A stretch of 63,744 nt of DNA, counting the filler, from Dugesia japonica (taxonomy: Eukaryota): NCBI GenBank assembly GCA_001938525.1. It is 6 parts of 6 records of this genome, joined end to end, with 100 filler letters (N's around TTAATTAATTAA, not from the genome) between each part and the next. Parts side by side here need not be neighbours in the genome. Positions count along the whole stretch, not along the records: positions 26,882 to 39,852 come from MQRL01633705.1; 5 more parts are not named here. One strand, given 5' to 3'. Both the position numbers and the translations under genes were made by a program. Every line of letters starts with the position of its first letter. Position 1 is the stretch's first letter. The notes below the pieces were generated by a model. That model was not told where the DNA came from. It did no database searches and saw only the letters and a list, made by a program, of their open reading frames with translations. Positions 15,019 through 59,156 of the stretch are shown piece after piece.

Positions 15019-15430
15019 TTACTTTATATCCAAAAAATTTTTAAAATTTTTTTTTAATTTAGTCGAATGAGCTGTCTGTACATTAATGCTTGGATTATGA
15101 AATCTAATCATTAACGCCTCATACAATACTCTCTCCCAGTAATTCTGAAATTGCTTAGACAAAATTTTAAAATTTGAAATTTCAACATTCGCATTGCAAT
15201 TACTTTTATTTTTATTTTTATGCTCAGCAATATTACTACCACCACCAAAATGATTATGCTCTTGAACCTTTGTACAGAGATGACGGGCAGTCTCTCCAAT
15301 ATATGTGGCATCACACCCATTACATTTAAATTGATAAACAATGTTAGAACACAAACCAATTGGTGTATAGGATTTATTAAAAAAGCAATTAACAATCTTA
15401 TGTGAAGTAAAGACAATTTTCAATAAAGGA
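15019..15430 (-). mobile_element. Penelope-like element C-terminal GIY-YIG endonuclease fragment
   Basis: KIVFTSHK..SNIVYQFKCNGCDATYIGETARHLCTKVQEH..EALMI..NPSIN. Confidence 0.9.
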
Positions 15431-17640
15431 AGATCCTTAGCAGCTTTCAGAATCGAATAGAAATCCACCGTATTTATCATTTTTAGGTTTAGGAGGTTCA
15501 TTGGGTTGGACTGATTCCGGTTTGTAGATTGATGTCTACTCTATAATGTAGAGCAGGTTTATGTCAATAAGTGGTTTTCTTGCGCAAAGAAGTTGAATGT
15601 AACCGCAGACTAGTGGCCCACAATCGTCTCTATTGGATTGGAGTTGATGTGGGACAGAATCTTTATTAAGTCGGATTCTTTTATCAATGAGCTAAATGGT
15701 CTGTTTGACATCTTTTCTTACTTCCGGATTATTGTTATTGTCCATTATAGGGTCTAATATAGTAACAGAAAGATTATCTATGAAGATCAAGACACAGTGA
15801 TTTTGATTGACATGTAGAGTGGCAAAGATCATTTTTTTAAGATTAATAGTATCTTCTTTCCAAACAGCGGTGATTTGGAAATTATATCTGACAGCAGATT
15901 GAGTTGCCCAAAGAGAAATAAAAGTGGCTACATTGGGATCCATAAAATTTAAAGTGAACGCTTCGATTTGAGAGTCACTGAACCGAAGTTGATCATCTTC
16001 AGGCGGCTTTTTCACAGCCAAGTGGTTTGAGCCAACAGTGACGCCTGAACTTCATTTGCTAGTTGCAGAGTTAATTTTCCTGGGGATGGAAGTGACAATG
16101 TTCGCTTCGTGACTACGGGTGTGGTGGAACACGCAGCTGATGTTAGGTCTGGGAAGAATATCTTCACCCGTATGATCTAATGATTCTTAGAGGAGTTCTG
16201 ATAGGTGAGTGGATTCCGTGGAAGGATTAGAATCCGAAAGCAGGTGTTCTTCATCTATATTGAGAGGTATTGGCTCTGAGTGATCGATGTCTGTAAAACG
16301 ATTTTCTGAGATTTCTTCAATAGTTGCTGTTATTTCCGTGGACGTTTGAGGATTGAGTTTACTAAGGAGTCTATTGAGTAGGTTTTTAGTATTAATATTA
16401 AGTTTGAGATCTTTGTGGGCGAAAAGAAAATTGGCAAGCTCTTTAAGCGTAGAGTAGTTGAGAAATTTTAGTTTATTTGGGGTCTTGAAGTTAGTTAATA
16501 TTTTAAAGAAATCTAGGTTAGTTTTCTTGACAACTGGCGGCTCTTGAGAGACTAGATGATTATTTTATTGACTGAGGAAAGTGGTGGTTTTATGTTTCAC
16601 AAAAAGTGAAATAACTGAAATAGCAGAAATTTGGAGATCATGAGGTAGATTGTTATCATTTTGTTTCACTTTAACTAATCTACGAATAAGTCTGAAGTCA
16701 CACGGGAGTGCAGTTGCGTGCTGTTGCTCTAAAAGATAAGTGATAGATGCATACTTCAGTTTTAAAGGAGGCATGATTGAAGAAATTGCACGATGGGTTG
16801 CAAAAACTGGCCTTAGAACAAAATTTCAGGTGATAAGAACATATACAGTTGTCGGATTTTTGGGGTTGACCTTCTTGATTATAATCTGAGTTTGATTTAT
16901 TAGTGTTTAGAGTCTTAAGATTTTCATTATGAGTAGCATTTGAAGAGTTATGATTTTGATTAGATGATTTTTCTAAATTGTCATTTTGAGAAATATGGTT
17001 TGAGTTTCGATATTTACTGTAAGTAAGCGGTTTTTTGCACTTGATATCTAGGTCATTATATTTATTGTGATAAAAACAGATATTTCTTTTGAATTTATCA
17101 GACGTAGTTAAATTTCTGGTATTATTCGAATCAAAATTATTATTAGAAACTTTGGATTTAGTACAATTTGAATCAGCTTTATTTTTAGCTTTATTCATGG
17201 GTTTTTCAGAACTTACGTGACTAACGTTTATTATCTAGTAATTCATTATTAATTTTATAATTACTTTTAGGAGTTTCTAAAGCATTTCGATTATTGATTT
17301 CAATATTAAAGGCCGATAATTTAAGGTCAATCAGTTTAATTATCAGTTGTGAGATTGATGAATTTGGAGATGAATTTTGAAGATTGCTATTTTCAAATAA
17401 AGGATTATTGTTATTGCAGTGTGGATGTGGTTTTTCAGCAGCTAGTTGATAATAAATGTTTGCTATAGATGCATGATTATAAGCAGCGTTTTTATCAAAA
17501 TCGATGATTTCAGCATTCAGATTAGATTTATCGTCAATTTTCAAAATTTAATTATTTAATAAATTATTCATTTGATTATTTACATGGTTATTTTGCGTAT
17601 TCAGTTCAATATTATCACATTGGCTACAATTTATACTATT
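15430..17640 (-). pseudogene. Disrupted TE-type ORF: three CxYH..C..PC zinc-knuckle-like motifs plus a Ulp1/SENP (C48) cysteine protease
   Basis: CFYHNKY, CSYHLKF..FCNPSC, CIYHL.F..ARNC; IFATLHVNQNHCVLIFID..ILDP then, in the same frame past one stop, PHQLQSNRDDCGPLVC. Confidence 0.7.
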
Positions 17641-23499: not shown

Positions 23500-26400
23500 A
23501 AATTGCCCAGATATTTAAAAATCTGTGAATCACTCTTACACCCCCTCTCTTTAAAATTCTTTTTAATCTTTTTCACATTTTTTCAATCATCCTGCCTTCT
23601 GAACTTTTCAGCAGGTATCATTTTTCATGCATCTGTTTTATCACCTCGTATGGACCTGTCTTTGATCTGCTTTCTTTCTTAATTAGCACCGCGTCTCCAA
23701 CATGAAAATGCATATTTGTTGGTGTCAACTCTATATAATCTTTATTCTTTTCTCCATTATTAAACCATCTTTCTCTATGTATCTTCTTACCGAATATCAC
23801 TTATGCTGAACTTATCCCCAAAGTCTTCTGGCTTGTTGAATTAAGTGTATATTCAATTTCTGGTATTAACTCTGCCCAATTTATATTCTTTTTATCTTTT
23901 AATGTTGCATTGATGAAATCTGTGATCATTCTGAATTGACGTTCTACTATTCTGTTGGCATTATGATGATATTGACTTGAAAATCAAATCATTATATTCA
24001 TTGAATGTGTTATCTTTTTAAAGGCTTTTGATTCAAAGATCTTCGCACAATCTACATGTATCTCTTTTGGAGCAACAAATCTCAGTATACATTTATAGAT
24101 AATCGTTTTCTTTATTGATTTCTCATCTCGTTTAACTAGGGCTATTAAGCATATGTATCTGCTAAATTTATCTATTATGGCACATATATATCTTTTTCTT
24201 TCTAAGGTTTCTTGGAATGGCCCATAGATATCAATATAAATACTCTCAAACGGTTCATTAGCCTTTACTTTATTTTGTTTTCGTTAGTGAATCTTTATGT
24301 AACGGAACTTGATAATATGCATTACTCAAATCCACCGTACTAAAATATCTTGCACAACTCAAATTGTCTAGAATTTACTTTACATTAGGCTTCGGAAATG
24401 CCTTTCTTTTTGTGATTGCATTTAGTTTTCTAAAATCTAAACATAATCTAACGTCTTTCCGTTCTTTTTCTAAACACATATTAACGAAGGGTTTCATTGC
24501 AAATTGCACTTCCTAATAATGCCATTATTAAATAAATTCTTGATTGCTTCATCTATCTTAATGCATTGGTTGTTTCCATGGTTTTCTATTTATTGGTTTT
24601 CTATCTGTGATTATTTGATGTTCTGTCACTTTTCTTTTACCAATATCCCAGTTGTCTGCCATGAATACTCCTTTATGAATCATTATAAAGTTTTCTAAAT
24701 ACTCATTTAGCTTGTTAATCAATATTTTATTGCTTTCTGTACTCTCATCCGTTGTATTGCGTCTATACTTTGCTTCTATATTACAAAGAGACATTGTTTT
24801 TCCTCGCATTTAGTTTCTCTCAGGAGTTGGAATCCAAACTGTTTCTGTAATTATATTCCTCCTATTAGATCTGGATGTATCTATTTCATCACAATGAATT
24901 TAATAGTTTCGCTTTTATTCTCGAATTTTACTTCTACCTTTATCGTACCTCCGATTTTGAGTAGACTATTATTGTAGACTATTAAATTTTCTTCACATTT
25001 TAATATATTGACTTCACTCAATCTTTCCAAAATTCACAAACTTATCCCATTAACTCCTGCTCCAGTGTCTAACAAGCCATCAACTTTTAAGCCTTGTATT
25101 TCAACTTTTATAATTGGTCTACCTTGCATCTTGTCATAACTTATCTCTTGTCGCTTTATCTCTTCTATCGTCAGAAGTTCACTGTCGCCTTCTCCATTTA
25201 TATCATTGATCATCTCTGGTTGGTCTCTAATAAATTCTTTCTTTACAAACTTGTAAACGTTTTCTTTTAGATCATTGTAATCATCTACTCGGTTATCTTC
25301 CTTTCTTATATTTATATAATTATTTTACTACTTTTCCTTTTATTAATAATACTGCAATCTTTTGGGATACTTAATTCAACTTTCCGACAATCTTAACTTC
25401 GGCCGGAGCTTGGCCATTTGAGTATTCATCTTGATAATTATTTGACCCATTATTACAATAGTGAGCTTTGTCTTCTCTACATGTCTGATTTTTCTCATTT
25501 TCCTCAATTAAATTAACTTGACTTTCTTTCCTTCTTGTGTAATTATTTCTATTGTTCAAATAATATCTTTGTTTGCCATTTCCGAATTCATTTCTGGACT
25601 GTTTATTTTTATTCTAATAACTAAACTGTCTGTTCATATTTGTCCTCTGTGTAGTGTCCTTTCTTGTTGCATCTTGAAAAACTACCTTTATTACAGTTTC
25701 TTCTTAAGTGTTGTTCAGATCCAGAAGCATTTTTTACTTTCTTGACAATTTCTGCTTACATGAACTTTTTTGTTACAAGTCCAGCACGTGATTTTTCGTC
25801 TTTCCTTGTTAATGTTCTGTTATATTCCTTCATTACGACTCTTACTGAAATTTCCTTGTTCTGAACTGCATCTCTGTAGTTACAAACTACATTGATTTTT
25901 TTAGTTTTAACTTCGTCTTTTATGCCTTTCCTCTCTTTTATTGCTTTAAATACATCTTTGACTTATTCAATTTTTCCTGATTTGATCTTATGTTTAATCT
26001 TTGCAACTATTCATTATTATCTCCTTTTTTAAGTCATCTTTGTTTCATAACTCTTCTACCAAGCCTTCAATCTTCTTCTTATAGATACTTATATGCTCTA
26101 CATTCCTTCGATAATTTAGAGCTTCCTTCATATGTTTAATCATTGTTGATGGCTTAAAGAAAGTCTTTCTTTATTCCATATAGATAACGAAATTTTGTTG
26201 TCTCCAAAATATATTTTACGACATCATTGCCCATTTCGAAAATTCCAGGGTTCATTGGTTCTTTAAGCATATCCAATGATGCGTTGGTCGCTATATTAGT
26301 TAAATTTACAACCTTAGAACTCTCCATAAATTTGGATTTATTATTACAAGATTTTTGATTAAGACAATAATGATGATGAATAATCCATAGTATTCAAACA
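23500..26400 (-). mobile_element. Gypsy LTR retrotransposon family B, internally deleted (gag, protease, RT start, integrase, PPT)
   Basis: LLDTGA at ~25060; FMADNWDIG RT start; integrase with GPY motif (KTGPYEVIK); PPT aaagagagggggTGT at ~23540. Confidence 0.85.
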
Positions 26401-26881: not shown

Positions 26882-28110
26882 CACTAATTACATCACTAAT
26901 CGGGGGGGGGGTTCACTGAATGTGTGCTGGCTATTACTCCTACTATCTATCTACTAACATAATCAGAGATGGTTTACGCTGTTTCCAATAAATTTTGCTT
27001 CCACCACTATTTTTCATCGGTGACATCTATATTCAGTATCGAGAGATTCACTTCGGGTATGATTTTATAATTTCTATAGAAGAGTTTCTTATTAACTTAT
27101 TAGACTTATTTCTAATATATTATTCAAATAATGAATTAATTCGATCATATATTTATTATAACCAACACAATATACTGTGATAATGAAAATTCATAAATCA
27201 TTACAAAATTAAACAATGTTACTCACTAGTTAAAGGAATTCTGCAACTTGAAAAAATAACAATGAATTGGTAAGATTTTCCTTGATTCTGCGGTCATCAC
27301 TAAAATCAAAATTTTCTTCCTTTAGAGTGTGAGTCTAACACTTAAAACTTTCCTGAGAATTGGTTCTGAAAATTTTTTGTATAGCCGTTCACAAGTGAAA
27401 TGAAAACTTTTTTAGGGTAATTTCGCTAAGTTTTCGGGGGGCTTTTATAGGATTTTCTTTACAACTCGACTCTTTTTACATTGGGTGCCATTTTTATTTT
27501 CTGGTTTGCCGTTTCTAATTGGTACCAGGTCTAAAATTGTTACGATTTCTGATCGCCTAATTGGTGCCTATTTTTAGGACACCCTGTGATTTTTTTAGCT
27601 TTATCTTTTGTTTATTTTCTGGCCTTTCATTGGCCAGTTCTTTAAAATTCTTTCCGGACCCTTCTAATAACGGTACTTTTTTTTAGTTAGAAAAATCTAT
27701 TGCAGCATGCTGTTCTGCATCCAAATCTTCTTTCCGGACTTCTTTCGATTTTTCTAAGCGGGGAAAATCGTCATTGACTGATTTTCTTGTAATTTAACTT
27801 CTTTTTTCCGATAAAATTAATTATATCCCATATCTTCTGATTTTAATTAATAACAATTATCCCGTTTTTCAATGATAAATTTTAATTTTCCTCATTATAG
27901 TTATTGAATCTAAACCTTGTTGTGGTAATATATTTAGCCGTTTATTACTTAATCATTTTCAGCTCTTCTTGAATTATTTAATATTGGTTAATTATTGAAA
28001 TGCGGTTTTCTTATTAATTAATCTGATCGAATAGTTTCCTTCTCTTCTTCTACACCCGTGTTTGGGCCCCTGAAAGTATTGTATCCATGATCAAGTGTTT
28101 CACCCCAACA
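26882..28110 (-). mobile_element. TGTTGGGG-element copy 1 (5' end, promoter and leader; runs off the scaffold end)
   Basis: Minus strand begins TGTTGGGGTGAAACAC at 28110; CCAAT boxes, TATAAAA at ~27445, donor A|GTGAGT at 27227/27226. Confidence 0.65.
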
Positions 28111-31100
28111 ATATTCTTTAGTATCTCAGTGCTTGCGTACGTGTATTCTTTTGAAACAGAAATACATTGCATGAAAATGAGACATTGAATATTGTCTATA
28201 ATTTTCCACGCAAATTATAAATTTTATCACCTCTCTTGAAGCATTCGTTTTTTAACTATAATAATTCCCTTTTTTATCAAAGGGATGATTGAAGAATAAA
28301 AAATAAAAACCAATAAACAACTAGTGGTAGTTTAATTTTTTAAATATTTCAACTGTATATTATTAATATCGCTTAATCGCAAAACTGACAGTACAATGAC
28401 TTAGTTATACAAATGTTTTGTTTGCATATCGATAGTGACGATTGGGGAGTCTAAAGAAATAAGTAACTAATGGTATGTAACTTGATTTTGGTGTCAGACC
28501 TAGATTGTAAAGATAAGACTTTTAAAAATTAAGACACCTGATAATTAACGTGTAAGGGGAACATCTCAGCGAAACACCACAGATCTGTTTCATCGGGATG
28601 TTCAATTATGCCATTAGAGAGGATGTGGGCTAAAAGTTGCTTCCTCCAAGCATTACTGTTAAAAGTTCTTATATTGTGTCAGTCAGAGTTTACATTGAGA
28701 ATAGTCTAATGTTGCCAGTGGCCCTCAGTAACGTTATTCTAGCAGCAGTATTAAAAGTAAAAGCCATGCTGGTTCCCTTGATTTTACTGAGAGGGGCGGC
28801 TCAATAGTCGATCGGCCAGATACGCATAACGATCATATCATCCTATTTATTAAAAATTAGAGCCACATACCATAATAATGATACACATATAGCGTGATAA
28901 TAATGCTAATAATAATGTTAATCAATATAATAATTCTAATGATAATATTAGGAATAATAATAATGAGATTACTAATAATATTAATAAATAATACTAATAA
29001 TTTTAACTTGGTGGAAAGTTTCATTATATTCACTCATAATATCACTACATCCATAATCACGGAGGTAATATATTGTCAGAAATTATTATATTTAATTGAA
29101 ATGATTCTACTATCTGAAATCACGACAGGTAATTATGTGAACTGCATCGTTCAAATTTAATGTATAGACCTGACATTTCCACACGGAATCTATTCTTAGT
29201 AATGCTATCAATCCCGTTTGACTCATGGATATTGGTCGTAATCATTTTAATGTTAACATTTAATAAAGTAATAATGTCGATAACAGAAGATAGATACTCG
29301 TACTTATTGTGGTGATCTTAAATCATGATATGGGTAAAAATCATATTCATCTCAGTGATTGCATTACCAATGTATGTGATGCCTATCGTCTAAATAAACG
29401 AATATCAATGCATGAGTCACCAGAGAGGGTTATTTCCATAATGGGCAGGACAATACAAACTACTGAAACACACGTCTCAATTGATCACTACTAATGTTGT
29501 TAACCAATTTGTTTAGTGATAGTGATGCCGATAATTCAGATAAGGATCGTACCTGTTGAATAACAATATTGATGTAGAACATTAACGGCGAACAGGTGTC
29601 ATGGTGATAGTGACACACCCAATAATGTGATTGCATCTCTCTTTATATTGCAAGTATTTTCACTGATGAATTATTGTGAGTATGTAGCACCTGAGGTGAT
29701 TCATAAATTGTCAGTGTCCGAAGTGAGGTGTGTATTCATTTAGATGGTAATTTTCTGGACTTGCTATGGCTTACGATCGATAGAGTGATATATATACTGT
29801 CGAAGTGAATTATCGGTGTTGTTACTTTATGTGTGATGCTACTCGGTTGCTGTTTGGAACAGAAGTTTTTGTTTGTTACTACTGTACAGGGTTCGTGAAT
29901 AGATAAGTACATTGATCACCTGACATTGGATACTGGCATTACACATTTTTAAACAATAGACAGTTTACATAGAAGAAATTTTTTATTAACGAACAATATA
30001 ACAATATGACACAAATAACCAAATNAAAATCACTACTCACTTCTTTATAATTATTTTCTGCAACGGGTTGAACAATTATTAATCGATTTCCACTGAATTA
30101 CGAGAGTCTACTATTTAGCTTTAATTAAATTCTGCTGTTTCACTGACTGGGAATTTTCTTCTACAATCACAGAGTTATTTCAACTAAAAATAATTGATGG
30201 TGATTTCTGTCTTACACTTTTCTCGTAGTAATATGTTGCTGACAGTTTTAACACAAATGTTTTCCACTGACAATTAATAGTACACGGTTTTAATAACTTT
30301 AATTCTCACAAATTTTGAGGGTGATATATTGATTTATTTTACTGGTATCCCACCAAATTGAGTTATTGTTTTATAACGTGATTGATATCGAGTAATATCA
30401 GTTTTTAAGTTGTTTTTTCTTCTAAAATTCAGGGGTTTTATATACCCTTTTCCGATGCATCTCGGCACAAATTTTATTGGCTGCTATTTTTAATTTGAAA
30501 TTCTTGTTCTTGATTGGTGTTTGTGCCAAATTTTAGATAATTTTGACAGTTTTGAGGATTTACATTGGTGGCTATTTTTCAGTCATCATGTGATCTGTTG
30601 TTCTTTGTTTTATTTTTATTTCTTGGACTGTTATTGGCCCATTTTTTTAAACCTTGTGGTGGTCTTTCTGATGGTGACAGGATTTTCTTATTTCGAAATC
30701 TTACTGCTTCTTAACCTTTTCTTTTCAGATTTTCTTGTTATGAGTCCGTGTGATTCTTCTGAGTGGAGTTATCCTTGAGAAACCAATTTTGGACTAATTT
30801 AAATTCATTTTTGTTCCAAAATAATTAATATTTTTTTCGATAATTAAATATTTTTCCAATAATCATTTTTCCTATTTTAATATTTATTTAATATTTTTCT
30901 TTAATCATTAGCACTGAAGAGGGTTAATTTAGTTTATCTACCGACTTGTATCCCTTTTTCTTTTTCAATTGTTATATTTTTAATCATTCGTAATTGTTTC
31001 AATTATTTTCTTATCGGGAAAAATATTGTACTTTTCGCTGCATTTACTTATTTTTAATTGACTTTCTTTACAACTCCTTTCTTCCTGATTTTACGTTCTC

Positions 31101-31150
31101 GGCCACCTGGGCCTTTTTCTTCTATATCATTCAGGTGTTTCACCCCAACA
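28111..31150 (-). mobile_element. TGTTGGGG-element copy 2 (5' ~3 kb, interrupted by copy 1)
   Basis: Begins TGTTGGGGTGAAACAC at 31150; TATATAAA at ~30440; donor A|GTGAGT at 30041/30040; 28550-28650 encodes LLAHILSNGIIEHPDETDLWCFAEMFPL, a paralog of 33760-33840. Confidence 0.7.
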
Positions 31151-31899
31151 TTATTATTATTATTTTTAGTGTTATTATAATTACTATTAACATTAGTAGC
31201 ATTATTATTATTACGATGATTATTATAGTTGCTATTATCATTATTAAGGTTACAAATATTGCCATACGATCATTANAAATATAATTAACGATGTTATTAT
31301 TGTTACGAATATTGTCAGTGTATGCGCCACTACTAATATCATAATTTGGCTTCTTGTTATAAGTGTTGGGGTAAAACGCCCGTTTAAAAAAGAAAAATAA
31401 GGCCAAGAAAACCCAAATCAACAAAAGAACGGCAGGACCATTACAGTTACCAATAATGAAATGCAGAAGATAAAGCGTGAANNNNNNNNNNNNNNNNNNN
31501 NNNNNNNNNNNNNNNNNNNNNNNNNNNNNNNATGCAGAAGATAAAGCGTGAAATAACCATTGGAAAAAGAACGAAATAAACTTGGAGATAGATACGAAGA
31601 ACCGGGTAACATAAAACTAAAATACATCAGTATTGGGAATTAAAAGAAATTATCCAATTCATAATAAAAATCAAGAAAATCATTAGGGGAGAATAATTAA
31701 TTAACAGAAAAAATATTAATTAATTTGGAAATAAGAAGAAGTAAAATTAGTCGAAAATCCGTTTTACCCGAAAACCTCCGTTCAGGAAAGTCAGAGAGAA
31801 TCCGGGTAAGAAAATCCAGAAAGAAAATCGTAAGAAGCATTAGAATTTGTTAAGAAGAAAATCCTACCACCATCCGGAAGGTTGNNNNNNNNNTTTCTT

Positions 31900-32383
31900 G
31901 ATCGGGCCAATAAGAAACCTAAAAATAAAAATAAAACAAAGACACAATTATCATGTGTCATTCCAAAAAAACCCACCAATTGCGGCTCCAAAACTCTGAA
32001 AATATTTTAGAGAATTGGTACTAGAGCCAATAGGAAGCCTAAAATTCCAGTTAAAAATAACCAGCGAATCTGTACAAGGTTGGAGTGTAAAGAAAATTCA
32101 TATATAAGGAATCATGAAATTAACAGAAAAGGTAGCATCCAAAATAAATTTTATTAAGCCTTTACAAGGAACACTGTTTAATATTCGTTATAATTCAAAA
32201 GAAGAAGCCCAGCAGAATTTTTACCGCAAANNNNNNNNNNNNNNNNNNNNNNNNNNTCAGTTATCGCGCATCGGAAAAACAGAAAGTATAACTCTCGTTA
32301 TCAACTGACCAGGAAAATAATTTCTTTGCCTCTTGTGGTTAACAACTGTTGCAGAAATTCCTATTGAAAATTCTACAGTAAGT
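31900..32383 (+). promoter_or_regulatory. Pol II promoter (three CCAAT boxes, TATA) and leader exon ending at a splice donor
   Basis: CCAAT at ~31906, 31976 and 32026; TATATAA at 32101; A|GTAAGT at 32377/32378; same layout in both minus-strand copies. Confidence 0.6.
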
Positions 32384-33688
32384 GTTTGTCATGTAATTTG
32401 GATTTAATATAAATTACAAGTTGAATGTGATGCATTTTTATATTTTAATTAATATTTTAATATACAATTACATTCAATAACATCTAAAATGTTTTTGTTT
32501 TCCAATTTGTAGTCGAACAAATGTATTTGGGTAGCATGATCCTGACCATACGATCTACAAATTAAAAGATCTGGTGAATTTAAGTCGATTTTATACATCA
32601 ATCATTTTTCCTGCTCCCAATAGAACATACATCATCAATAAATCAATAATGCATTCGTAGTGATAAATGATTTACAAAATAATAATAGGAATCGATGAAC
32701 CAGTTAGCAGAATAAGTTAGTTGCACATACACACCTACTAGTATTTAAACCCCAGTGTGTATTGCTAGCTGCTGACTTGTTTACTAATGCTAAGCAACCA
32801 CATTCGTTAATTTTTTTAAAAACTTAAAATTTGCCTAATTAAATAACTTTTATTATGTCGAAGAAATATAAGTTTGTTACACGGGAAAATGTGAAACTTC
32901 ATCGCCCTTCATAAATTATCTAAAGTGTGGTTGTTATTATATTCTTAAAATGATCAATATCTTTATTATTAGCATTATGAATCTTTGCGATTTCGATGAT
33001 AGCATTATGAATACTATTATTATTAATCGTGTTATTGCTATTATTATCCCTACTAGCCGTGATGGAAGTATCATTTTTAATATTACGATTCGTATGATTA
33101 TTATTCTTATTATTAACATTCTCACACCGATTATTCCACTTATTGCGCACAAAATCATTACCTTTACTCCTAGGAATCCTTATTACTAGTGTATCAATAT
33201 GGTTTAGACCCCAGAAAATGATCGACAATGTTAATTAATATTATTCAGGGGATTGTTGTCCTTGATTGTGATAAGTCTTCATATTACTAGTAAGGGACAG
33301 TGGTAACTATTCTTTGTAGCGGATTGAAATCACGGTTAATAATCGAGTTTATGACTGCTATGGTCAATAAATTTTTTTTGGCTGGCGTTATGATGACTAT
33401 TCCAAGCATTAAGATGAGATGAGTGGTGTCAGTATTATTATCATCAGTATTATATTTGCTTTTAGGGCCATGATTAACAATCGCTTTATGAACAGTCTTT
33501 TTTAAATGATATACTGTTAACAGTAATATTTCTTTCCATGGTCTCCTGAATGCCGCTAATGGGACCTCAGTGTGGAAAATAGCAGTACAGATCACACTGT
33601 TAGACATTCTTATTGCGTATTTTTTAGTCAGACTGAGAGAACCTCAATTCTAAATATAGACTTTTGGTATTTGTCATCTTTCTAGTTA

Positions 33689-33894
33689 ATGCCGGCAGAA
33701 CTGAACCATACCTTACAGTGGATCAGACAACAGCGACGGACCACTAGAATGAAACAATTAATAGCCCATCTATTGACTCGGGGTAGAATAGAGCATCCTG
33801 ACGAAACCGACCTTCAATGTTTCGCGAGATGTTTCCCCTAGTTGAACAAGATGATTTGGACAAAGAACGAGAAAACGAATGGCATAGTGCTTAA
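33689..33894 (+). pseudogene. Element ORF-0, small unknown protein with a 1-bp frameshift
   Basis: Acceptor ttctag then ATG; LIAHLLTRGRIEHPDETDLQCF(A)EMFPL is conserved in the minus-strand paralog. Confidence 0.6.
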
Positions 33895-34045
33895 CCTACG
33901 TCGGGTGAATCTTATCCCTCACGTCACCTTTAAACTAGTTGTGGTTGTATCATCCCTGGTGTTGTTATTTTCTTTAATCTATATAAATTGTCTTTAGTGT
34001 TATCTTAATAATCATTATAAAGAATTTTTTTGTTTTTCACGAGAA

Positions 34046-34396
34046 ATGGACTCAGTTTGGGAACAGACCATAGACCGCAGAACTCGCTGGGTGGTTTTTA
34101 GACGCCACCATAACCCGCATAATAGAGATGCCGGTATCTTGATGGATCAGTCTAACCTGGAACCGGTTGAGGCTACAGTGGCTCGTATCCAGAGCTTCGG
34201 CGAGAGGATACGATTCCAGCAGTGGAACGGGCCCGTACGCAACCATGCCACATCCTTTAACTACCAACCACCGGCTCCACCCCCTGCAGTACAGGCTTTT
34301 ATTTCTAATTTACTCTGGGGCGTGAGAGATCCCACCGGGGTAGTCGATACAGAGAATACCGCTCCCGTCAACGATATGGAAGGGGATTCACAATAA
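34046..34396 (+). CDS. Element ORF-A, 116 aa unknown protein
   Basis: Intact ORF after a polypyrimidine-AG, AATAAA overlapping the stop; paralog at 36201 shares W...DRR....F.R..NPHNR.AG.L.D..NL. Confidence 0.75.
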   Translation: MDSVWEQTIDRRTRWVVFRRHHNPHNRDAGILMDQSNLEPVEATVARIQSFGERIRFQQWNGPVRNHATSFNYQPPAPPPAVQAFISNLLWGVRDPTGVVDTENTAPVNDMEGDSQ

Positions 34397-34580
34397 AACC
34401 GTTATTTTGAGCAAAACGATAACTAAATCACTGTTTTCTTTAAAAATAAACGAGTCTAGTTAAAAGTTTTATTTATTTTTTTTTGTTGTTGTTTTATTTC
34501 TTTTTACGGTAATATCAGAATGTACGGTTGAGTGTTGAGTGTACCATTAATAACGCATAACGATTAATTACTATTTGTAG

Positions 34581-34939
34581 TGCATTTCTCTCTGAATCGT
34601 CTTTCAGCCCCGACTAAAAAGATGCGAGAAACTAGTGAGGACCAAGAGATGACTTGGGACCTCTACCGTCTTGCAAAGTGGCGGTGGGAAGCTGAGACGG
34701 CAACAGCTGAGGCTAAGGTCACATGCTATAAACGAAAATGTCTGGCTTTTAAAGCAGAAGTAGAAGCGACCCAGAACCAAGAGAGAATATGGAAATTACA
34801 AGTTGAATCCTTCACCGAAATCATTAAGTCGTATCAAGAGCGTGAGAATAAACTAGTAGGAAACATATTGAAATTGAGGACAGCTATACCTTTGACCCCA
34901 CTCATGGTCGATAAAGGAACACAGACCAACCGCTCCTGA
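34581..34939 (+). CDS. Element ORF-B, ~119 aa coiled-coil-like protein starting at AG|TG
   Basis: tttgtag|TG CAT TTC; AATAAA at 34969; decayed paralog at 36831-37180. Confidence 0.7.
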
Positions 34940-35060
34940 GTTATCATTATTGACCTTTGATTAACGTTAATAAATTGTCTTTATTTTGTATAAATTTTTC
35001 TTTGTTTTGTTTTCCGATCTTAAATTTAGAGTTTACCGACTTAACTATAATTTTCTTTAG

Positions 35061-35413
35061 TGCCACGGATTGTATTATCAACTAAACTGCAGAGATGCCA
35101 TCGTATCATGCACCGTCTGTTATTGGAACGGCACTTAAAACGTAAAACAGACCGGGCTCTTCTTAAACATTTGGCCCAGAGGGATAAATTGATAAAAACG
35201 TTGGATTTAATTGTAAAGAAACAGAGTGATTTAGCGTCCCAAACCAAGTCCCTGGAAGCAGAGACCAAACAACTGTTACAACGAAAAATAGAATTTCTGA
35301 AACAGTACATAGCCGACCTTTCCCGCCAGATAGGTAATCCAACTTGGGTCCAGTGGGACGATCATGATGACGTCGCCACCTTTAATTTTTCGTTAACGGA
35401 CCCAGCTCAGTGA
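35061..35413 (+). CDS. Element ORF-C, ~117 aa coiled-coil-like protein starting at AG|TG
   Basis: ttctttag|TG CCA CGG; AATAAA at 35455; paralog at 37298 (tgtag|TG CCG AGA). Confidence 0.7.
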
Positions 35414-35702
35414 TTAGATCCAGGAGCTTTGAATCTGTTGTAAATGTTTTATAAAATAAATAGCGTATCGTTAATGGTGTTTCTCTTCTAATAAATTAAA
35501 AAAGAAAATATATAAGGAAAATAATGAACCCGAATACAAAGGTTTGTGGGCGTGCACCTCCCATTAAGCGAGGGGTCAACCACCATAAGCTGAATACCTA
35601 ACCTGGGGGCGTTAGGTCAAATTCTTGAAAGGGTTCCCCTGAGGGCTGTTTTTCCCCAGCCACAAATATCTTCGTCCAACTCAGGTGGGACCCCAACATA
35701 AG

Positions 35703-37902
35703 TACGAATTAAGGCGAGCATGTTGCATTTAGAAGACGAGTTGACCTACAGTGAATATTTTCTATTTCCTCCTGCAGGCACACACTGTTCTCAGCTTTTA
35801 AATTTTTTAAATTATTATGTCAACGATAAACATTCTATTAACTAAGAAATAGATTTTTTCATGTCCGACATTTTAACAAGGACGCTAAAAATAATTCGGT
35901 AGGAGCGGAAACGTTCTCGAAAAAAAGCTATTAATCGGCCATTTATTCTTCCACGATGTTGTCCTGTATCCAGTCGAGTTAGATCTCTAATGCTTCAAGG
36001 AATTATATCCCTTTCCCTAGGAAGTTGACTTGGACATGGAACCATGACTACATTTTGGTGTTTCACTTTTGGTTTCTCTGTAAAATAAATAATCTCATAT
36101 TTATACTTCATTTCTCTTTTCATTAATGTGCATTGCTATAATTGCTGTCAAATCAATGAATAACTCATTTCGACTTATTAATTTTCTTTTAGATAAAAAA
36201 ATGGAACATAAGTGGGAAGTGCATTTAGACCGGCGTATCGGAAGATTAATATTCAAACGATATAAGAACCCCCATAACCGAAACGCTGGGGTGTTGGTAG
36301 ACCGTTTTAATCTGTCTTCAGAACAGGCCGAGGACGAGTGACAATGGGACGCCACCAAGCGTCGTGCTTTTTATGAATGGAATAGTCCCAATCGAGAACG
36401 AGAGGTATATCATTCCACTACGGCTTTTCCACCGGTTAACAGTGAAGAGCTTCGTACCACCAGTGAGTGACACGAAGGCCCTTCTGTGATTTCAGTTTCT
36501 ACCATTTTTCTCCAGATTGGGCGAATTCGTAAATAATACACTTTAAGAGATACGAAATAGGAGAATGGCGGTAGCGCAGAAAATTTGGTTTTAGGTGATA
36601 ATGACGAAACTATATAGCAATTCGTACCTCTTGATGACCACTTTTAGTGTTAATAAATTATTTTATTATTTTCAAGCATCTTTTGTTAACTCTCGATCTT
36701 AATCACAATAATTAAATGGTTTATCAAGCACTAAGTAATTGGTTATGATGAGGTTTCAACTTTAATGAAACCGACTAATTATTCATATTCTCATTGTTTA
36801 CATATAATATTTTAAATACATTTTTTCCTGTGCATTCTGCCCTAAATCGTTCTGTGGCTCCCACTAAAAAGGTGCGAGAAAAAAGTGAGGACATGGAAAT
36901 GACGTGGGATTATATCGTCTCGCGAAACGTCGATGAGAGGCAGACACAGTTACTGCCGAATGTAAGGTAAAAAGGTATAAAAGAAAATGCAAAGCGTTTT
37001 GCAAAGAAGCAGAGGCCTCCCATACCCAAGAGAGGCTTTGGAAAACTTAAATTAAATCATTAGATGAAATTATCCGGTCCCTTCATGACCGAGAAAATAA
37101 ACTGGTCGCAGATATTTTGGCGTTAGGGAAAGCCATGCCACTAGAACCACTAATGGTGGATAAATCCACACAAACTTCATGCCCTTAACTTGATGTTAAT
37201 CTTTTTGATAATGAAAATACATTGTTCCGTTATAACGGGCCATTCATGTTTTTTCAATTGAATGAGTTTTTTAGTTATTTAATTATTTCTTTTGTAGTGC
37301 CGAGAATCAGACTTCCTATCAGTTTACGTCGCTGCCACCGTCTTATTCAAAAATTAATACTTGAGCGTCATATCAAGAGACAAAACGCGCGCTACTACGA
37401 CACCTTTCCCAGCGCAATCGGTTAATTAAGAAGTTAGATGTCATAGTCAAAAAGCAAGGCGACTTGGCCAATCAAACAAAAAAAGTACTCCAGCACAAAA
37501 TCGAGTTTCTAGAGCAATACATTGTTGACCTTGCCAGTCGTCTCGAGCAAGAGACATGGACTCGCTGAAACAGCGAGAACGACGAAACCGCTTTCGGCTT
37601 CATCCCTGAAGAGCCAACCCAGTGGTTAGACCCGGGTGCTCTGGATTTTATGTATTCAATTGGAAATAAATTTTTAATTCTAGTACATTATTAATTCGTT
37701 TTTGATAAATTAAATTATAAGAAAAATAAGGAACCAGAAACTAAAGGTATATGAGTGTGTACTTCAAATAAATTATGGAAGTCAACCGCTCTATACTGAA
37801 AATCTAATTAGGGACATAAGATCAATTCTTGAAAGGGTCCCCTGAGGGCTGTTTTTTCCCCAGCAACACTTTTCTACATCTAACTCAGGTGGGACCCCAA
37901 CA
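35703..37902 (+). mobile_element. TGTTGGGG-element copy 4 (3' half; probable host of the complete copy, continuing at 31151-31363)
   Basis: Decayed ORF-A, B and C paralogs in the same order; same terminal hairpin and CCCCAACA end at 37902. Confidence 0.75.
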
Positions 37903-38313: not shown

Positions 38314-38660
38314 AGTAAATACTAGTAAGAATAAACACGCGAGTTAAATTATCCAGAGAGATCTTATTGAACGATCAATTGCGTTATCGGGCTGAGTTGA
38401 TCAAATTCCAGAAAGAGCTGCACGAAGCCCAGGAAGAAATTTTCAACTAAAGGGGAAAGTGAGATTGCTACGAAACTGGTTGAGTGGCAATAAGGTAAAG
38501 GAGCTGGCCCTCATGCACAATAATCGAATGTTGCTAGCTATTTCAAAAGTTGCGCAGAATGATAAATTTAGGTATTAGGAAATTTTCGACCACCTTGGCA
38601 GAATTATTAGAAGGATCCAGCCTAGAAGATCGTAACTATAACGGAAAGTGCCATCTAAAG
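38314..38660 (+). pseudogene. Decayed coiled-coil ORF of a related element
   Basis: After ttttag: ELIKFQKELHEAQEE..NKVKELALMHNNRMLL, similar to HKSRELALQQANRLIV at ~50950-51000 (-). Confidence 0.45.
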
Positions 38661-41052: not shown

Positions 41053-41229
41053 GGGAATTTGTAATTATTACAGGAAGTTTATAGAAAACTACGTAAGAAA
41101 ATCAAACATATTAGAGCAGATGTGTATCGGACCAATCAACAAGAAATTAGAATAGACAGATGAAATAAACGATACTTTTGAGGGTCGGATAAAATCTTTA
41201 ATGACCGCACCAATATTGAGTTTTCCGGA
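41053..41229 (+). mobile_element. Older Gypsy pol (RT-connection) fragment, left half of the host element
   Basis: GICNYYRKFIENY..LMTAPILSFPD. Confidence 0.8.
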
Positions 41230-44200
41230 TGTTAGTTGAGTTTGGAAAACTCATCGTATCATCAATATCAAAATTCAAATTCATTACTTTGTTTATTTTT
41301 ATTAAAATCAAAACTATAACCAACATTATTTGTATTTCAAACAAATTAAAGTCATGTGCTTTAATTGGTGATCTTTTTTCTAAAATTTAAAAATTAAAAC
41401 GTTTATTTATTAAAATTAATTTTAAAATTTTATTTATTAAAAAATTAAACTTTATTATTCAATAATTATAATTTATCCTTAAATCAATACTTGTTTATTT
41501 AAATTTTTCATCAATAACTTAAATCTCTTTTAACAAAAGATTTTAAAAATAAGATCACCAATCACATAAAAATTTCAACTTGCTTTTAACACTGCTCACA
41601 TCCCTCTTTTTTAAGAAATTTTTTGATCTTCTCTACGTTTCTTTCGAGAAAATGTCCGTTTGTAATTGTCCGGATGTAACGTCTATCATGAATCTTCTTC
41701 TTGATCTTATAGGGTCCTTCATAATGATCTTGGTACTTGTTCCTTGTTTCATCTTTCACCAAGACCTCATCACCAATCTCGAATTGTCCTATGGTTAATA
41801 TTTCTTCCACTTGTTCTTTGTGCACTCTTTGAGAATTGGTTTCATACCATTTTCTCTGCTTATTCTCTTCACAAATACGATTTCAGTAGGGCTTTTACCG
41901 ATAATTTTCTGTTTTGTAGCATTTAAAGTAAATTCTATCTCTGGCAATATATCTGCCCAATCTGAGGTTTTTTTTATGATCTGTTCTGAGAATAAATCTC
42001 TTCTCATATAAGTAATGTTTGAAATGAATACAAAAGTAGTAAATTGCGAGAAATACTTTCCGTGTAGTACAATTTCCTTTCTCATGACTCGTCATTGCGT
42101 GTGACCCATATGCAATTACTGTTTCTTGTCCATTGTTGTCTTTTTGAGATAGTATTGTCCCAATAGTATCGAAACTCGTATCCGAGTCCAAAATAAATCC
42201 TCTATTTATAAATGGAAACATAGTATTGGGGACACCACTAGTGCTTCTTTCATTTCATTAAAAACTTCTTTTAATTCATTCACCCATACAATTTTCTTGT
42301 TACATGTCCCACTACACAGCTGTTCCAACAATCTAGCTTTCTTTGAATAATCTTTAATAAACTTTCAATAGTAATTGTAAATTCCCAAAAAGCTTCTCAT
42401 TTTCTTAACGCAGTTTGGTTTATCGAAGTTCTTAATTGCTTCTATTGTAGTTGGGTCTGTTTTGATACCTTCTTTGCTGATAATGTGTCCCAAAAATTTA
42501 ATCTCCTTTCACATGAATTGACATTCTCCAGATAAACTCAGACCAGCCTTTTTAATTTCTGTTAATATTTTATTGATTATTTCGTAATGTTGCTTCTCTT
42601 TTTCGGTGAAAATGAGAATATCATCTAGATAAACCATTGCTCCATTTATTTTTCCGATTAATTTATTCATCATTTCCTGGAACGTACCTGGTGCTGTTGC
42701 AATTCCAAAAAGCATTCTAATTAAACAAAATTGCCCTTGTTTGGTCGAAAAAGCCTTCTTTTCTTGAGAATTTTCACTGATTTCCACTTGGTAGTATACA
42801 TTTCCCAAGTCTATTGAGCTACATTACTGCGTACCTTCCAATAAATCTAGCATTTAGTCCACATTTGGCATAGGAAAACTTGTCTTTCTGTTATTGCATT
42901 GAGCTGTCTAAAGTCTAAGCATAATTGTATGTATTTTCCTATTTCCAAACACAGATTAATGGCGAACTCCATTGCAAATTACACCTCCGGATGAAACCAT
43001 TATCATATATATTCTTGATTGCCTTTTCAATCTTTTCCTATAGATTCGTCCGTTGGGGATATGGTTTTATGTTGATTTGATCTCCTTTAGTGATTATTTG
43101 ATGTTTCGTTAAGTTTGTGCATCCAATGTCCCATTTATCCGCCATAAATACATCCTCATTATTCTGAATAATCACATTCAATCTATGATCTTTGTTCATT
43201 TCTAGAATCTTCATTGTATGTTTCAATCGTTCACCCGTCTGTATTTATCTTCCAAATTTTGCCTCGATGATTATTGACGTCTACATTGCATTTTGTCTGA
43301 AGATGATACCCAAAATTATTCTGAAATTCCACTCCACCAATTAGATCTGGTATTAATTTCTCTACTATTATAAATGTTACTTCCTTGCACACTTCTGAAA
43401 CTACAACTTTGGCACGTATCTTTGCAATCGTCTCCAATGAGCTGTTAATCACGCAATGCAATTGTTCCTTGCTTTTATTTAACATTGTTTCTCCGAGTCT
43501 ATTAAAGCCTTTCATGCTCCTCACATTTATTCTTGCTCCCGTATCCAACAATCAATCAAACTGTTCATCATTTATCATCACTGAAATGCTAGGTCTCCAT
43601 TGCATTTTATCATACGAAATTTCTGCATTCTGTTTTTCTTCAATTATTTCTATCATTTCTGCTTTGTTATCTTCCGCACCATTTAAACTTTCTTATTTTA
43701 GGAATCTGTAAACCTTTACTCACTTTACTCGTCTCATTCCATTTCTTGCCCTCTTGAGGATATTCAAACGGTATCTCGTTTAATGGATGGCTCCGACCAA
43801 CTCCTCTACTGACGGAACCCTGCCTTTTGGGTATTCTCTTCTTGGATTTTCATTTTCTATTATGCTATCAGAAAGTCCTTCTTCATTCTCATTATCAAAT
43901 ACTTCTCGAATGGCATGAATTGGTTTTGTCCGACTACAATCTTTTATTTGTTGTCCGCTTCTAAAGTTGTATCTTCTCTCTTCTAGTCTAGGTTTATTAA
44001 TGTTCGAATAACATTCTTGTGCTCTGTGACCCGGTCTTTTACATCTACCACATATTATTCCTGTGCACATCCTTCTGACATGACCAATCTTACCACACCC
44101 AAAACATTTTGGTGGTTTCTTGTCTGGNNNNNNNNNNNNNNNNNNNNNNNNNNNNNNNNNNNNNNNNNNNNNNNNNNNNNNNNGACACTCTCTTTTTGTA

Positions 44201-45169
44201 TGCCCATAACTCTGGCATGTCCAACACTGTGATTCTGTTCTTTTTGTAACTCTCTCAATATTTTGTCTCTTTTCTCCGAAACGTTCTCCGAAAAGTTCTC
44301 TGAAACATTTTCCGCGTGTTACACTAGCGTAACTCTTTACTACATTAATAGGTTCTCTTCTTTCTATTTTTTCAACTAATGTTAACGTTTCTTTTAAATC
44401 TTCTACTTTCTCAAGTTTTTGCATGATTATCTTTTCTTCTGCTTTTTGACTATTTGCACAAATTAATAGCATTTTTTATAAGAGTTTTTCTTTCGTCAGC
44501 TCTCCATTTGTTAAATATTTATCAACCAAATCTTCCACTTTTTTAAATATACCTCAAGTTCTTCATCACCACGTTGATAGCTTACAAGATTTTCTAAATC
44601 TTTTATTATGTCTCTTTTGCTCTCAAAAGCTAATCGCAATCTCTCTCGATATCCATCAGCTTTCTTCAATGTCTTTACATATGCTTCCATTAAATCTTCA
44701 TGAAGCATACATGTTACCCAACGTTCTTGATCTTTCTTAGCAATGATGTTCTTTACATCAAAGTATATTTCACACCGTTTTTTAAACTTCTCTAGATAAT
44801 CGCCTCTGCATAAAATTTTTGGCAACAATCTTTCTGTGATTGCATCAGTGTTTACCGCTGCCACAATATTAGTTAAGTTTGGAAAACTCGTCGTATCATC
44901 AATATCAAAGTTCGAATTCATTACAACGCTTTATTAAAATCAAAACTATAACCAACATTATTTGTTAATCAAACAAATTAAAACCATGTGCTTTAATTGG
45001 TGATCTTTTTTCTAAAATTTAAAAATTGAAACTTTTATTTATTAAAAATCTAAACTTTATTATTCAATAATTTTAATTTTTCCTTAAACCAATATTTGTT
45101 TATTTAAATTTTTCATCAATAATTTAAATCTCTCCTTTGAACAAAAGATTTTAAAAATAAGATCACCAA
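41230..45169 (-). mobile_element. Gypsy family A element with two LTRs; RNase H-to-integrase deletion
   Basis: 3' LTR 41230-41600 (TG..CA, PPT aaagaggga); 5' LTR ~44869-45169 truncated; gag with CCHC knuckles, LDTGA, YLDD, RNase H (DTS..RTDH), integrase C-terminal GPY. Confidence 0.95.
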
Positions 45170-52010: not shown

Positions 52011-52817
52011 TTCACTTTTGATCTCTGTTGCCACTCACCGCATACCAATTGTCTCACCACTCCTCGGTCATCATGCATATGCTTTGTTACAGCAGAAATC
52101 TCCAATATTCAGCAAGTCACAACATGTATACCACCACACTACCTTTTATAGAGTACTTGGAGTTATTTGATTGACACTGATTTTGGAAAATGCAAAGTGG
52201 TATTATCAATACGGTAAGTGCTTTTTTATCTGCTGATTCATTGACTGATTTCATTTATTTTCAGATTTAGTTTTTCCAAACCATTATCAACAATCGCTGG
52301 TCTGGACTCAATTATAATACAAACAATTACTACTAATAATATTGATAACTACAAATAATAATAATGATGATGAATAGAAATAATTATAAATTATTACAGT
52401 AATGATATTGTCTTAAGGACCTTTCTATTATTATTATTATATAAATAAGTAGTAAGGGAATGACGATTTTGATCACACACCCCCCACCATAAATCACCCA
52501 AGCAAAAGAAAGGCCCATCGCAGGGGATAAAAGTGATGGATAGTGAATTGTGAGAAAAACACTAGTTTTGAGTAAAAACTTCAAAAAGAATCAAAATTGT
52601 GAAATTATAAGGAGAGAGTGATCAAACTCGTCATTCCCTTACTACTTGAAGATTGGTGATTGATGATTTTTCCCAGAATAAAAAAACTAATAAATATTAA
52701 ACTAAAATATTAAACTAAAATATTAAAGTAAAATATTAAACCAGAAACAATGAAGAAAAAGTGGTTATAAAAGTCCAGCAAGGAAAGGGTAAAAAGGGGT
52801 TATGGTGCTGGGTTCAA

Positions 52818-56549: not shown

Positions 56550-56704
56550 TTTATAGTATTTAAATCTAAGTTAAATAGAGAATGGTTAGAGAGAATAGTT
56601 TTACTAATGGTTTTAGTAATGGTTTTACTAATGGTTTTACTAATGGTTTTAATATTTTATATTTTATATTCAAGCTGTTTTTAATATTTATATTTTAAAG
56701 ATTT

Positions 56705-58810: not shown

Positions 58811-58850
58811 AAATACTATTTATATAATAAATATTTTTAGTTTAATAATA

Positions 58851-59132: not shown

Positions 59133-59156
59133 AATAAACCATTTAGAATAAACCAT

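Follow-up and report, generated by a model that had tools for sequence, protein, structure and literature searches.

A 4.3-kb mobile insertion with LTR-type ends carries four small genes under purifying selection in Dugesia japonica

RESULTS

A genuine mobile insertion with LTR-type ends

The element described here, E1, is a genuine 4.3-kb mobile DNA insertion carrying four true genes under purifying selection, and it is probably a solo LTR left by a giant Gypsy-type (Metaviridae) element with a cassette of accessory genes in its LTR. The window in which it lies is a 63,744-nucleotide stretch of six joined parts from Dugesia japonica assembly GCA_001938525.1. The insertion is delimited by the following features.

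31364..35698, plus strand: E1, whole element, 4,335 bp (ends and empty-site joint)
31360..31363, plus strand: TAAG target duplication, left copy (sequence; empty-site joint)
35699..35702, plus strand: TAAG target duplication, right copy (sequence; empty-site joint)
31364..31372, plus strand: left short inverted repeat (att-like), fitting TGTTRNR (end comparison)
35690..35698, plus strand: right short inverted repeat, fitting YNYAACA (end comparison)

The termini (TGTTGGGG at 31364 and CCCCAACA at 35698) and the TAAG words flanking them (31360-63 and 35699-702) are as the original prediction had them. The inverted repeat is perfect over 9 bp, with 15 matches over the 31 positions that follow. 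Termini of this type recur more often than chance predicts: the window has five, all lying between 28.1 and 37.9 kb, compared with 0.34 expected from base composition. All five visible ends fit TGTTRNR...YNYAACA, which the portion of PMC3601003 drawn on here gives as the consensus of the LTR short inverted repeat. The outer flanks of the other family ends in the window are TTAT, ATAT, and TTAT.

An empty-site joint (31358 to 35698) was present in contigs from both public DNA runs examined, at one contig per run with a short side of 28 letters; it skips 4,339 bases, that is, 4,335 plus 4. The proposed integrase-type insertion signature is thus supported by a 4-bp duplication at the empty site as well as by the fit of all five ends to the LTR consensus. 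The filled left junction (31165-31432) was spanned by a contig in both DNA runs, and N gaps are present inside E1 in the draft assembly. We also noted a second joint near the empty site, of equal depth, which skips 88 bases; because of this, the contig that shows the empty site may derive from a paralogue of the host copy E2 (see below) and not from the allele.

A nested family of four

E1 and three relatives (E2 to E4) form a nested family of four within 11 kb, 60-76% alike.

31151..31359, plus strand: E2 (the copy hosting E1), upstream piece with ATT-rich tract (sequence comparison)
35703..37902, plus strand: E2 (host copy), 3' part with decayed ORF-0, ORF-A, ORF-B, and ORF-C (sequence comparison)
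28111..31150, minus strand: E3, left end, promoter, and ORF-0 remnant (sequence comparison)
26882..28110, minus strand: E4, left end, promoter, and donor A/GTGAGT (sequence comparison)
32937..33189, plus strand: ATT-rich tract of degenerate triplets, within the predicted intron of E1 (present also in E2 and E3)

The earlier reading overlooked that E1 lies within a decayed relative and that two further relatives lie upstream. The four E2 ORFs have decayed through stops and frameshifts, and the right end of E2 is followed by TTATTAT. E3 sits in the ATT tract of E2 in the opposite orientation, and its sequence 3' of ORF-0 does not resemble ORF-A. E4, which is cut off at a contig gap (26881), is likely inserted into E3. 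The ATT-rich tract is likely a preferred insertion target. E3 and E4 were considered as a 5'/3' LTR pair, and this was rejected, their identity being just 61%. No joining of family pieces to the Gypsy remnants of the same window was seen.

Four ORFs are under purifying selection

33689..33841, plus strand: ORF-0, 50 amino acids, predicted acceptor at 33686 (C-terminal block comparison with E3)
34046..34396, plus strand: ORF-A, 116 amino acids (first 65 amino acids 40% identical in E2)
34581..34939, plus strand: ORF-B exon, beginning ag/TG, 119 amino acids if the leader A completes ATG (pN/pS 0.31; predicted helix)
35061..35413, plus strand: ORF-C exon, beginning ag/TG in E1 and E2 (37298), 117 amino acids with the spliced ATG

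The four short ORFs that had been proposed are present, and a selection test between copies returned pN/pS values of 0.30-0.49 for all of them: 0.38 (0.24-0.61) for ORF-0, 0.49 (0.36-0.66) for ORF-A, 0.31 (0.22-0.43) for ORF-B, and 0.30 (0.22-0.39) for ORF-C. Synonymous sites were close to saturation. In frame-shifted controls the ratio was 1.08-1.80, apart from the codon-mirroring antisense frame (0.46). A C-terminal 29-residue block of ORF-0 is 72% identical in E3, and the ORF-C product is basic and coiled-coil-like. The stretches between acceptor and first ATG, an upstream extension of ORF-B and ORF-C that the earlier reading overlooked, also show the coding signal (pN 0.18 versus pS 0.63 in ORF-B and pN 0.32 versus pS 1.08 in ORF-C), and the internal first ATGs of the two ORFs read V and I in E2. 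These analyses indicate that ORF-0, ORF-A, ORF-B, and ORF-C are true genes under purifying selection. Such long-term selection on cargo would suit lineages that replicate together with their genes.

Three of the ORFs were also said to have their own AATAAA. This holds for ORF-A (34392, 34445), ORF-B (34969), and ORF-C (35455, 35490), ORF-0 being the one that lacks it, and is weak evidence alone because the window has 2.9 AATAAA per kb. ATT-rich and antisense ORFs at 32872-33643 were rejected as genes, no common open frame existing in E2 and E3.

Promoter, leader, and predicted splicing

31907..32108, plus strand: predicted Pol II promoter, CCAAT at 31907, 31976, and 32027, TATA at 32101 (spacing kept in E3 and E4)
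32130..32377, plus strand: predicted leader exon, ATG-free, with 26 N inside (start placed from the TATA box)

The predicted CCAAT/TATA promoter is present in E1, with CCAAT boxes at -194/-125/-74 relative to the TATA box (32101), and its spacing recurs in two relatives (-193/-124/-73 and -184/-115/-73). The E1 leader ends A/GTAAGT, with the predicted donor at 32378. Together, the leaders contain a single ATG over 791 nt versus 12.6 expected, a count for which the E3 donor was picked post hoc among candidates. The ORF-B and ORF-C exons open directly at predicted splice acceptors (ag/TG), and the leader ends in A; therefore, splicing would build their start codons. We propose that the promoter would yield one ATG-free leader, spliced to one of four last exons, so that each mRNA would encode one protein, the final A of the leader completing the ATG in ORF-B and ORF-C. 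E1 was almost uncovered in both oligo-dT RNA runs (about a quarter of each was read), and no splice joint from the leader was seen in either. Of the RNA reads placed, 99% fit only in part, and poly-T loose ends at 34467-34506 were set aside as oligo-dT artefacts.

ORF-B is predicted to be helical and carries an LC8-type motif

34907..34927, plus strand: LC8/DYNLL-type motif VDKGTQT in ORF-B (motif match; VDKSTQT in E2 at 37156)

Structure modeling placed residues 12-101 of ORF-B in a helix, followed by a disordered tail (pLDDT 53-61), so that the protein is predicted to be a single helix of ~90 residues with a disordered tail. The model of ORF-A was unusable (pLDDT 42). The LC8 motif [D/S]K.[T/V/I]Q[T/V], as defined in the part of PMC3078936 consulted, occurs three times across the six-frame translation of the window, two of these being the ORF-B copies; both copies keep it in the disordered segment beside the predicted coiled coil. 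ORF-B may act as a coiled coil that binds the host hub LC8.

Searches for relatives of the four proteins

The proteins had been reported as unrecognized and the element as lacking a transposase, and the searches bear this out: no relatives were found, and neither an rve/DDE domain match in the four ORFs nor any longer ORF in E1. Homologue searches returned one candidate for ORF-B and three for ORF-C, none of which passed. An ORF-B profile run against 1.84 billion representatives gave a single match (E 1.3e-4), to a generic coiled-coil protein. Atlas searches with ORF-C and ORF-A, and searches of PHROGs, PDB sequences, and viral contigs, gave nothing usable; Pfam gave only sub-threshold matches, mostly to coiled-coil families. 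These blanks say little on novelty because no relative was found for a neighboring host IBR exon either. Rfam gave one sub-threshold match, and the tRNA search gave none. A single metagenome sequence (L001) matched the right-end motif of 19 nt; this match lies inside a GC-rich, bacterial-type ORF and was dismissed as chance. Open-access literature listings yielded no account of a multi-gene LTR of the E1 kind.

The right-terminal 190 bp and family depth

35455..35495, plus strand: AATAAA signals 3' of ORF-C, with a GT-rich stretch at 35475
35509..35568, plus strand: possible compact LTR core, second TATA-like word and poly(A)-like word (putative function)
35631..35693, plus strand: predicted terminal stem-loop (z -3.4 in E1, -1.15 in E2)

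TATAA lies 187 bp from the right end in E1 and 186 bp in E2, and a poly(A)-like word (ATTAAG in E1, AATAAA in E2) lies 135 bp from it. This second TATA is without CCAAT, and TATA-like words occur 1.5 times per kb in the window. On sequence grounds, motifs in U3-R-U5 order (TATA, AATAAA, GT-rich) occur in two possible layouts of E1. The final 190 bp could be an ordinary LTR core (TATA, R with a poly(A) signal, and U5 hairpin), which would place the genes in a 4-kb U3.

The z score of the E2 hairpin is not significant, and the 5' half of the stem-loop falls in a stretch common to far more copies than the element interior. No two-sided (compensating) change separates the E1 and E2 hairpins, the pair count being uninformative (two rows, with a register slip). 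RNA run X18 holds a related subfamily over the terminal motif, with loose portions of reads (median, 42 nt) extending to approximately the element end. The variant of this subfamily at 35645 (49/49 and 29/30 reads) appears, by eye, to be matched by a change in the partner arm, at a loose end that shows 0.65 agreement and is offset by one base.

In both DNA runs, the right-end motif was ~200- to 500-fold deeper than the least-covered interior bins (in X1, 187,952 versus 384-988), contig depth not being equal to copy number. Many family copies carry internal deletions in these runs. No shared sequence beyond 35698 was seen among the 24 loose ends listed.

DISCUSSION

The original prediction left the choice between a solo LTR and an integrase-mobilised cargo element. 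The solo LTR is the reading we favor; for the cargo reading, a Ginger-type assignment fails on inverted-repeat length and target. As a solo LTR, E1 would stem from a full-length element that a retroviral-type integrase inserted, somewhat preferring AT-rich or (TTA)n tracts, and that LTR-LTR recombination then reduced to one LTR; copies would pile into each other because the family itself carries an AT-rich/(TTA)n-type target tract. Counting against an LTR are the absence of PBS, PPT, and Gypsy-remnant junctions at family ends in the window, the lack of shared sequence beyond 35698 among the loose ends listed, the scarce RNA coverage, the second TATA without CCAAT, the non-significant E2 hairpin, the absence of two-sided change between E1 and E2, the possible paralogy of the empty-site contig, and the need for genome-length RNA to read through at least five internal AATAAA. 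A less probable alternative is that the 4.3-kb unit is the whole element, a stand-alone non-autonomous cassette whose genes aid its own spread and which is mobilised in trans by the DDE integrase/transposase of another element, as DNA or as a retroelement-particle passenger. No PBS-like TGG, purine tract (PPT), or gag-pol adjoins any of the five visible ends in the window, which agrees with the earlier statement that PBS and PPT are missing and would fit such a cassette, but solo LTRs are without PBS and PPT by definition. The excess depth at the right end and the internal deletions are as expected of short non-autonomous derivatives, but the depth contrast is also explained by many diverged subfamilies. 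A gene set with poly(A) signals would work as a self-contained unit, and Ginger2, in the excerpted account of PMC2836005, gives 4-bp duplications at AT-rich targets. E1, however, has no long inverted repeats, and purifying selection over saturated dS would not be expected for trans-mobilised DNA-element cargo. It is doubtful that the unit was never an LTR and represents a new stand-alone integrase-mobilised class, with LTR-type ends, a large and diverged family, a self-carried target, a modular cassette of genes whose starts are splice-built from one leader, and proteins making LC8-type host contacts.

Splicing of a leader to alternative exons has parallels in viruses. Literature listings, as far as they go, record viral proteins that bind LC8, and both the leader with alternative-exon expression and the LC8 motif of E1 are virus-like. 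Even so, it is very unlikely that E1 is an integrated piece of some unknown DNA virus (segmented or satellite) using a retroviral-type integrase: no relative was found in viral contigs, PHROGs, or the Polinton of the window, there is no capsid or polymerase ORF, and the ends are LTR-type rather than Polinton-type. Polinton ends have long inverted repeats and a 6-bp duplication. An assembly artefact, or chance ORFs within a non-coding repeat, would account for the N gaps inside E1 and the absence of RNA support in the runs examined, but this explanation, the most improbable here, is largely refuted by contigs across the filled left junction and the empty site in both DNA runs and by selection on all four ORFs.

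LTRs are viewed as regulatory sequence, with roughly one accessory ORF in the known exceptions. If the solo-LTR reading is true, a four-gene LTR would mean that each solo LTR leaves behind a complete gene cassette with its own promoter, many copies of which would be masked as non-coding by repeat annotation. If instead an internal domain is absent, E1 would be a new kind of element. E1 offers small orphan proteins under selection, with a host contact (LC8) that can be tested, and a compact example of predicted expression where the start codon comes from the splice choice. Like the LC8-binding coiled-coil proteins in the part of PMC3078936 used, ORF-B matches motif positions -5 to +1 and has a disordered tail beside a long helix; those proteins have D/E at +2, whereas ORF-B has N or S and is without sequence relatives.

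Among known elements, Ginger1 and Ginger2/Tdd share TGTNR ends and a 4-bp duplication with E1, and Ginger2 favors AT-rich targets, according to the excerpts of PMC2836005 from which all Ginger comparisons here derive. Inverted repeats there are 40-270 bp in Ginger1, about 50-180 bp in animal Ginger2, and about 50-300 bp in Ginger2/Tdd. E1 was rejected as Ginger1 (9 bp versus 40-270 bp; TAAG versus CCGG/CCGT) and as Ginger2/Tdd (inverted repeat too short; target not RTATAY). Ginger elements carry a Gypsy-like DDE transposase or are short non-coding derivatives, whereas E1 has four unrelated genes and no transposase. Closer in size are the giant LTR elements described in the portions of PMC6431247 available to us. 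The planarian giant Gypsy Burro/GYPSM1 is over 30 kb long, of which the internal region takes up to 25 kb, implying multi-kb LTRs; it occurs in thousands of copies and carries accessory ORFs as well as host-manipulating domains. Its accessory ORFs are internal, and those portions do not mention genes inside the LTR; E1 was compared with Burro by description only. E1 may or may not be an already catalogued Burro-type LTR, and a full match to a catalogued giant-Gypsy LTR, which is possible, would lessen its novelty. Plant Ogre/Tat LTRs are multi-kb like E1 (1.9-6.5 kb in Ogre), but their extra ORFs lie in the internal region (PMC6431247, same portions). Genes in or beside an LTR, expressed via splicing or a second promoter, are represented in the consulted text of PMC12789967 by MMTV sag, HIV nef, and the foamy virus accessory genes. 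The entire sag ORF lies within U3, which in MMTV holds this one ORF (plus a rem exon); E1, in contrast, has four ORFs that share a predicted leader, with separate poly(A) signals and with start codons that splicing is predicted to build.

E1 is a polymorphic insertion

E1, the element at 31364-35698 (4,335 bp), begins with TGTTGGGG, ends with CCCCAACA and is flanked on both sides by TAAG. Its perfect inverted repeat is 9 bp long; further inward, 15 of 31 positions are identical. The termini and TAAG duplication of the original prediction were confirmed by an empty site: in contigs of X1 and X7, public DNA sequencing runs of different studies (the window itself may derive from one of them), a joint leads from 31358 to 35698, skipping 4,339 bases, which is E1 plus one TAAG. 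The filled left junction also is spanned by a contig in each run. Depths of the filled form, the empty form and the flank bin were 20.9, 19 and 35 in X1 and 8.8, 7.35 and 19 in X7. Contig depth is not copy number, and these values fit a heterozygous E1 insertion, since the filled and empty forms sum to approximately the flank depth. The empty form could instead be a paralogue, given that a second joint nearby, of equal depth, skips 88 bases and that the empty-site joint has only 28 letters on its short side. Allele or paralogue, it shows the pre-insertion state, and E1 is a real, polymorphic insertion of the integrase type.

E1 belongs to a self-nesting family

Five such termini occur in the window against 0.34 expected, all within 28.1-37.9 kb. 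In addition to E1, they delimit the following copies:

31151-31363 and 35703-37902: E2, the decayed copy surrounding E1, its ORFs carrying stops and frameshifts
Left end 31150, minus strand: E3, inserted in an ATT-rich tract of E2
Left end 28110, minus strand: E4, likely inserted in E3, the remainder hidden by a contig gap at 26881

Aligned blocks between copies are 60-76% identical. TTATTAT adjoins two of four insertion sites versus 1% of positions (P about 0.0006; spotted post hoc), and we infer that, if the family prefers ATT-rich targets, the tract it carries itself would account for copies nesting in one another. X1 depth across E1 was 384-988 in the lowest interior bins, up to 7,972 in the ORF bins and 187,952 in the last bin; these depths indicate a repeated family that shares its right-end motif far more widely than its interior. 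The family is large and old as well as self-nesting.

Other features of the window

The window is AT rich and rich in AAT repeats, with Gypsy and Polinton remains, a combination reminiscent of planarian genomes:

3034-3318, plus strand: exon encoding an IBR domain, likely part of an RBR ubiquitin ligase, for which longer proteins yielded no relative
11370-13939, 23984-25324 and 41229-45169, minus strand: three decayed Gypsy copies with gag zinc knuckles, RT and integrase, two of them 82-84% alike
15019-15540, minus strand: ORF whose motif resembles the GIY-YIG endonuclease of a Penelope-type element; no Pfam match at E 0.05
15692-17547, minus strand: Ulp1 protease fragment (PF02902) adjoining N-rich ORFs with Cys/His repeats; this may be a decayed transposon
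38370-38660, plus strand: decayed coding-like stretch directly beyond E2, matching nothing else in the window
52655-63744: Polinton-like element of ~11 kb, bounded by 171-bp inverted repeats (89%), with PolB pieces (PF03175, protein primed) and integrase-like and phospholipase A2-like ORFs
62362-63083, plus strand: two tandem HTH-like ORFs (75% alike) inside the Polinton end, surrounded by 13-, 14- and 19-bp tandem repeats at 62100-63600
9557, 18134, 26782, 39853 and 48641: five spacers of 100 bases each, in which two runs of 44 N enclose a 12-mer that has stops in every frame; they likely are artificial joins between contigs, across which the order may not be real

Four genes under selection

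E1 was predicted to hold four short ORFs: ORF-0, ORF-A, ORF-B and ORF-C. Comparing their codons with those of E2 and E3, with stop codons left out, indicates that they are real genes under selection: pN/pS was 0.38 for ORF-0 (57 codons), 0.49 for ORF-A (69 codons), 0.31 for ORF-B (114 codons) and 0.30 for ORF-C (108 codons). Every bootstrap interval lay below 0.7, with synonymous sites close to saturation. Shifted-frame controls, run on a pooled set that included a misframed ORF-A piece, gave 1.08-1.80; the exception, at 0.46, was the antisense frame, whose codon positions mirror those of the sense frame. After ORF-0, the sequence of E3 (28111-28555) is unlike ORF-A; the gene content of subfamilies may differ.

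As anticipated, none of the proteins is recognisable: no search, including Pfam, PHROGs, PDB sequences and viral contigs, returned a relative. The IBR-domain host exon likewise returned none, so this lack is weak evidence. The predicted fold of ORF-B is a single helix (residues 12-101) plus a low-confidence tail containing VDKGTQT in E1 and VDKSTQT in E2. VDKGTQT matches the LC8/DYNLL motif, including the valine at -5, making ORF-B a candidate LC8/DYNLL binder. With all six frames of the window read, this pattern is found at three places, two of them in ORF-B copies. According to PMC3078936, that valine raises affinity and the motif lies in disordered sequence next to a coiled coil; ORF-B shares motif and setting, its tail adjoining the predicted long helix. 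ORF-C is basic and coiled-coil-like, and the structure model of ORF-A was unusable.

Predicted expression

The proposed promoter is present: its TATA box is preceded by three CCAAT boxes, and the spacing is kept in E1, E3 and E4. Downstream lies an ATG-free stretch ending in A, followed by the donor GTAAGT at 32378. Pooled leaders of the three copies contain 1 ATG in 791 nt versus 12.6 expected, the E3 donor having been chosen among candidates and the E1 leader including 26 N. ORF-B and ORF-C each follow an acceptor with the sequence ag|TG, in frame, and splicing would let the last A of the leader complete their ATG. Their acceptor-to-first-ATG stretches are under selection, and those first ATGs are not retained in E2. 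ORF-0 and ORF-A have weaker upstream acceptors and an ATG each. Transcripts would run from the promoter through the leader into alternative ORF exons. This splicing prediction was set before reads were compared; the claimed leader exon has its ATG-free stretch and donor, but no splice joint was found in two oligo-dT RNA runs (about a quarter of each, 85% likeness), in which E1 was almost uncovered.

A solo LTR or a cargo element

The ends were taken to indicate either a solo LTR, the lone terminal repeat left after loss of a Gypsy-type retrotransposon's interior, or a cargo element. Their integrase character held: all five visible ends fit TGTTRNR...YNYAACA, an LTR integrase signal (PMC3601003). 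Between the two readings, a solo LTR is reasonably probable. Judged from sequence, the final 190 bp resemble a compact LTR core, with TATAA 187 bp (E1) or 186 bp (E2) from the right end, a poly(A)-like word at 135 bp in both, and a stem-loop after it (z of -3.4 in E1 and -1.15 in E2). In X18, an RNA run, 57-73 reads of another subfamily cover the right-end motif, reaching about the element end; judged by eye, the variant of that subfamily at 35645 may be matched by a change on the partner arm. These reads fall downstream of the ORF-C poly(A) signals, as expected of a transcript that starts in a 5' LTR and continues across U5; read-through of host transcripts explains them too.

Against a solo LTR, none of the five ends adjoins a PBS or PPT, as originally stated for E1, and no family piece is joined to the Gypsy remnants of the window, which have no sequence link to the family. 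At least five AATAAA would lie in the path of a genome-length RNA, and the 24 loose ends listed share no downstream sequence. A stand-alone cargo element seems rather unlikely, and a viral segment very improbable.

Comparison with known systems

No LTR anatomy appears in the accessible portions of PMC8532177, PMC11410931, PMC13238120, PMC13465017, PMC13309565 and PMC10899757, and Burro is unmentioned in three supplementary files of PMC11410931. A literature search on ORFs inside Gypsy LTRs found no paper fitting by title or abstract start; E1 may already be named in repeat libraries or supplements. Ginger membership was rejected, since Ginger elements require inverted repeats of at least 40 bp (PMC2836005) versus the 9-bp perfect repeat of E1.

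E1 bears four orphan genes under selection, in a unit predicted to combine a leader with alternative exons. In operation it resembles an LTR that carries accessory genes, and it is a putative member of that class. Giant Gypsy elements are known whose LTRs span several kb and which have accessory ORFs (PMC6431247). With an LTR core in the last 190 bp, the genes would occupy a 4-kb U3; MMTV carries sag in its U3 (PMC12789967), whereas the putative U3 of E1 would carry four genes.
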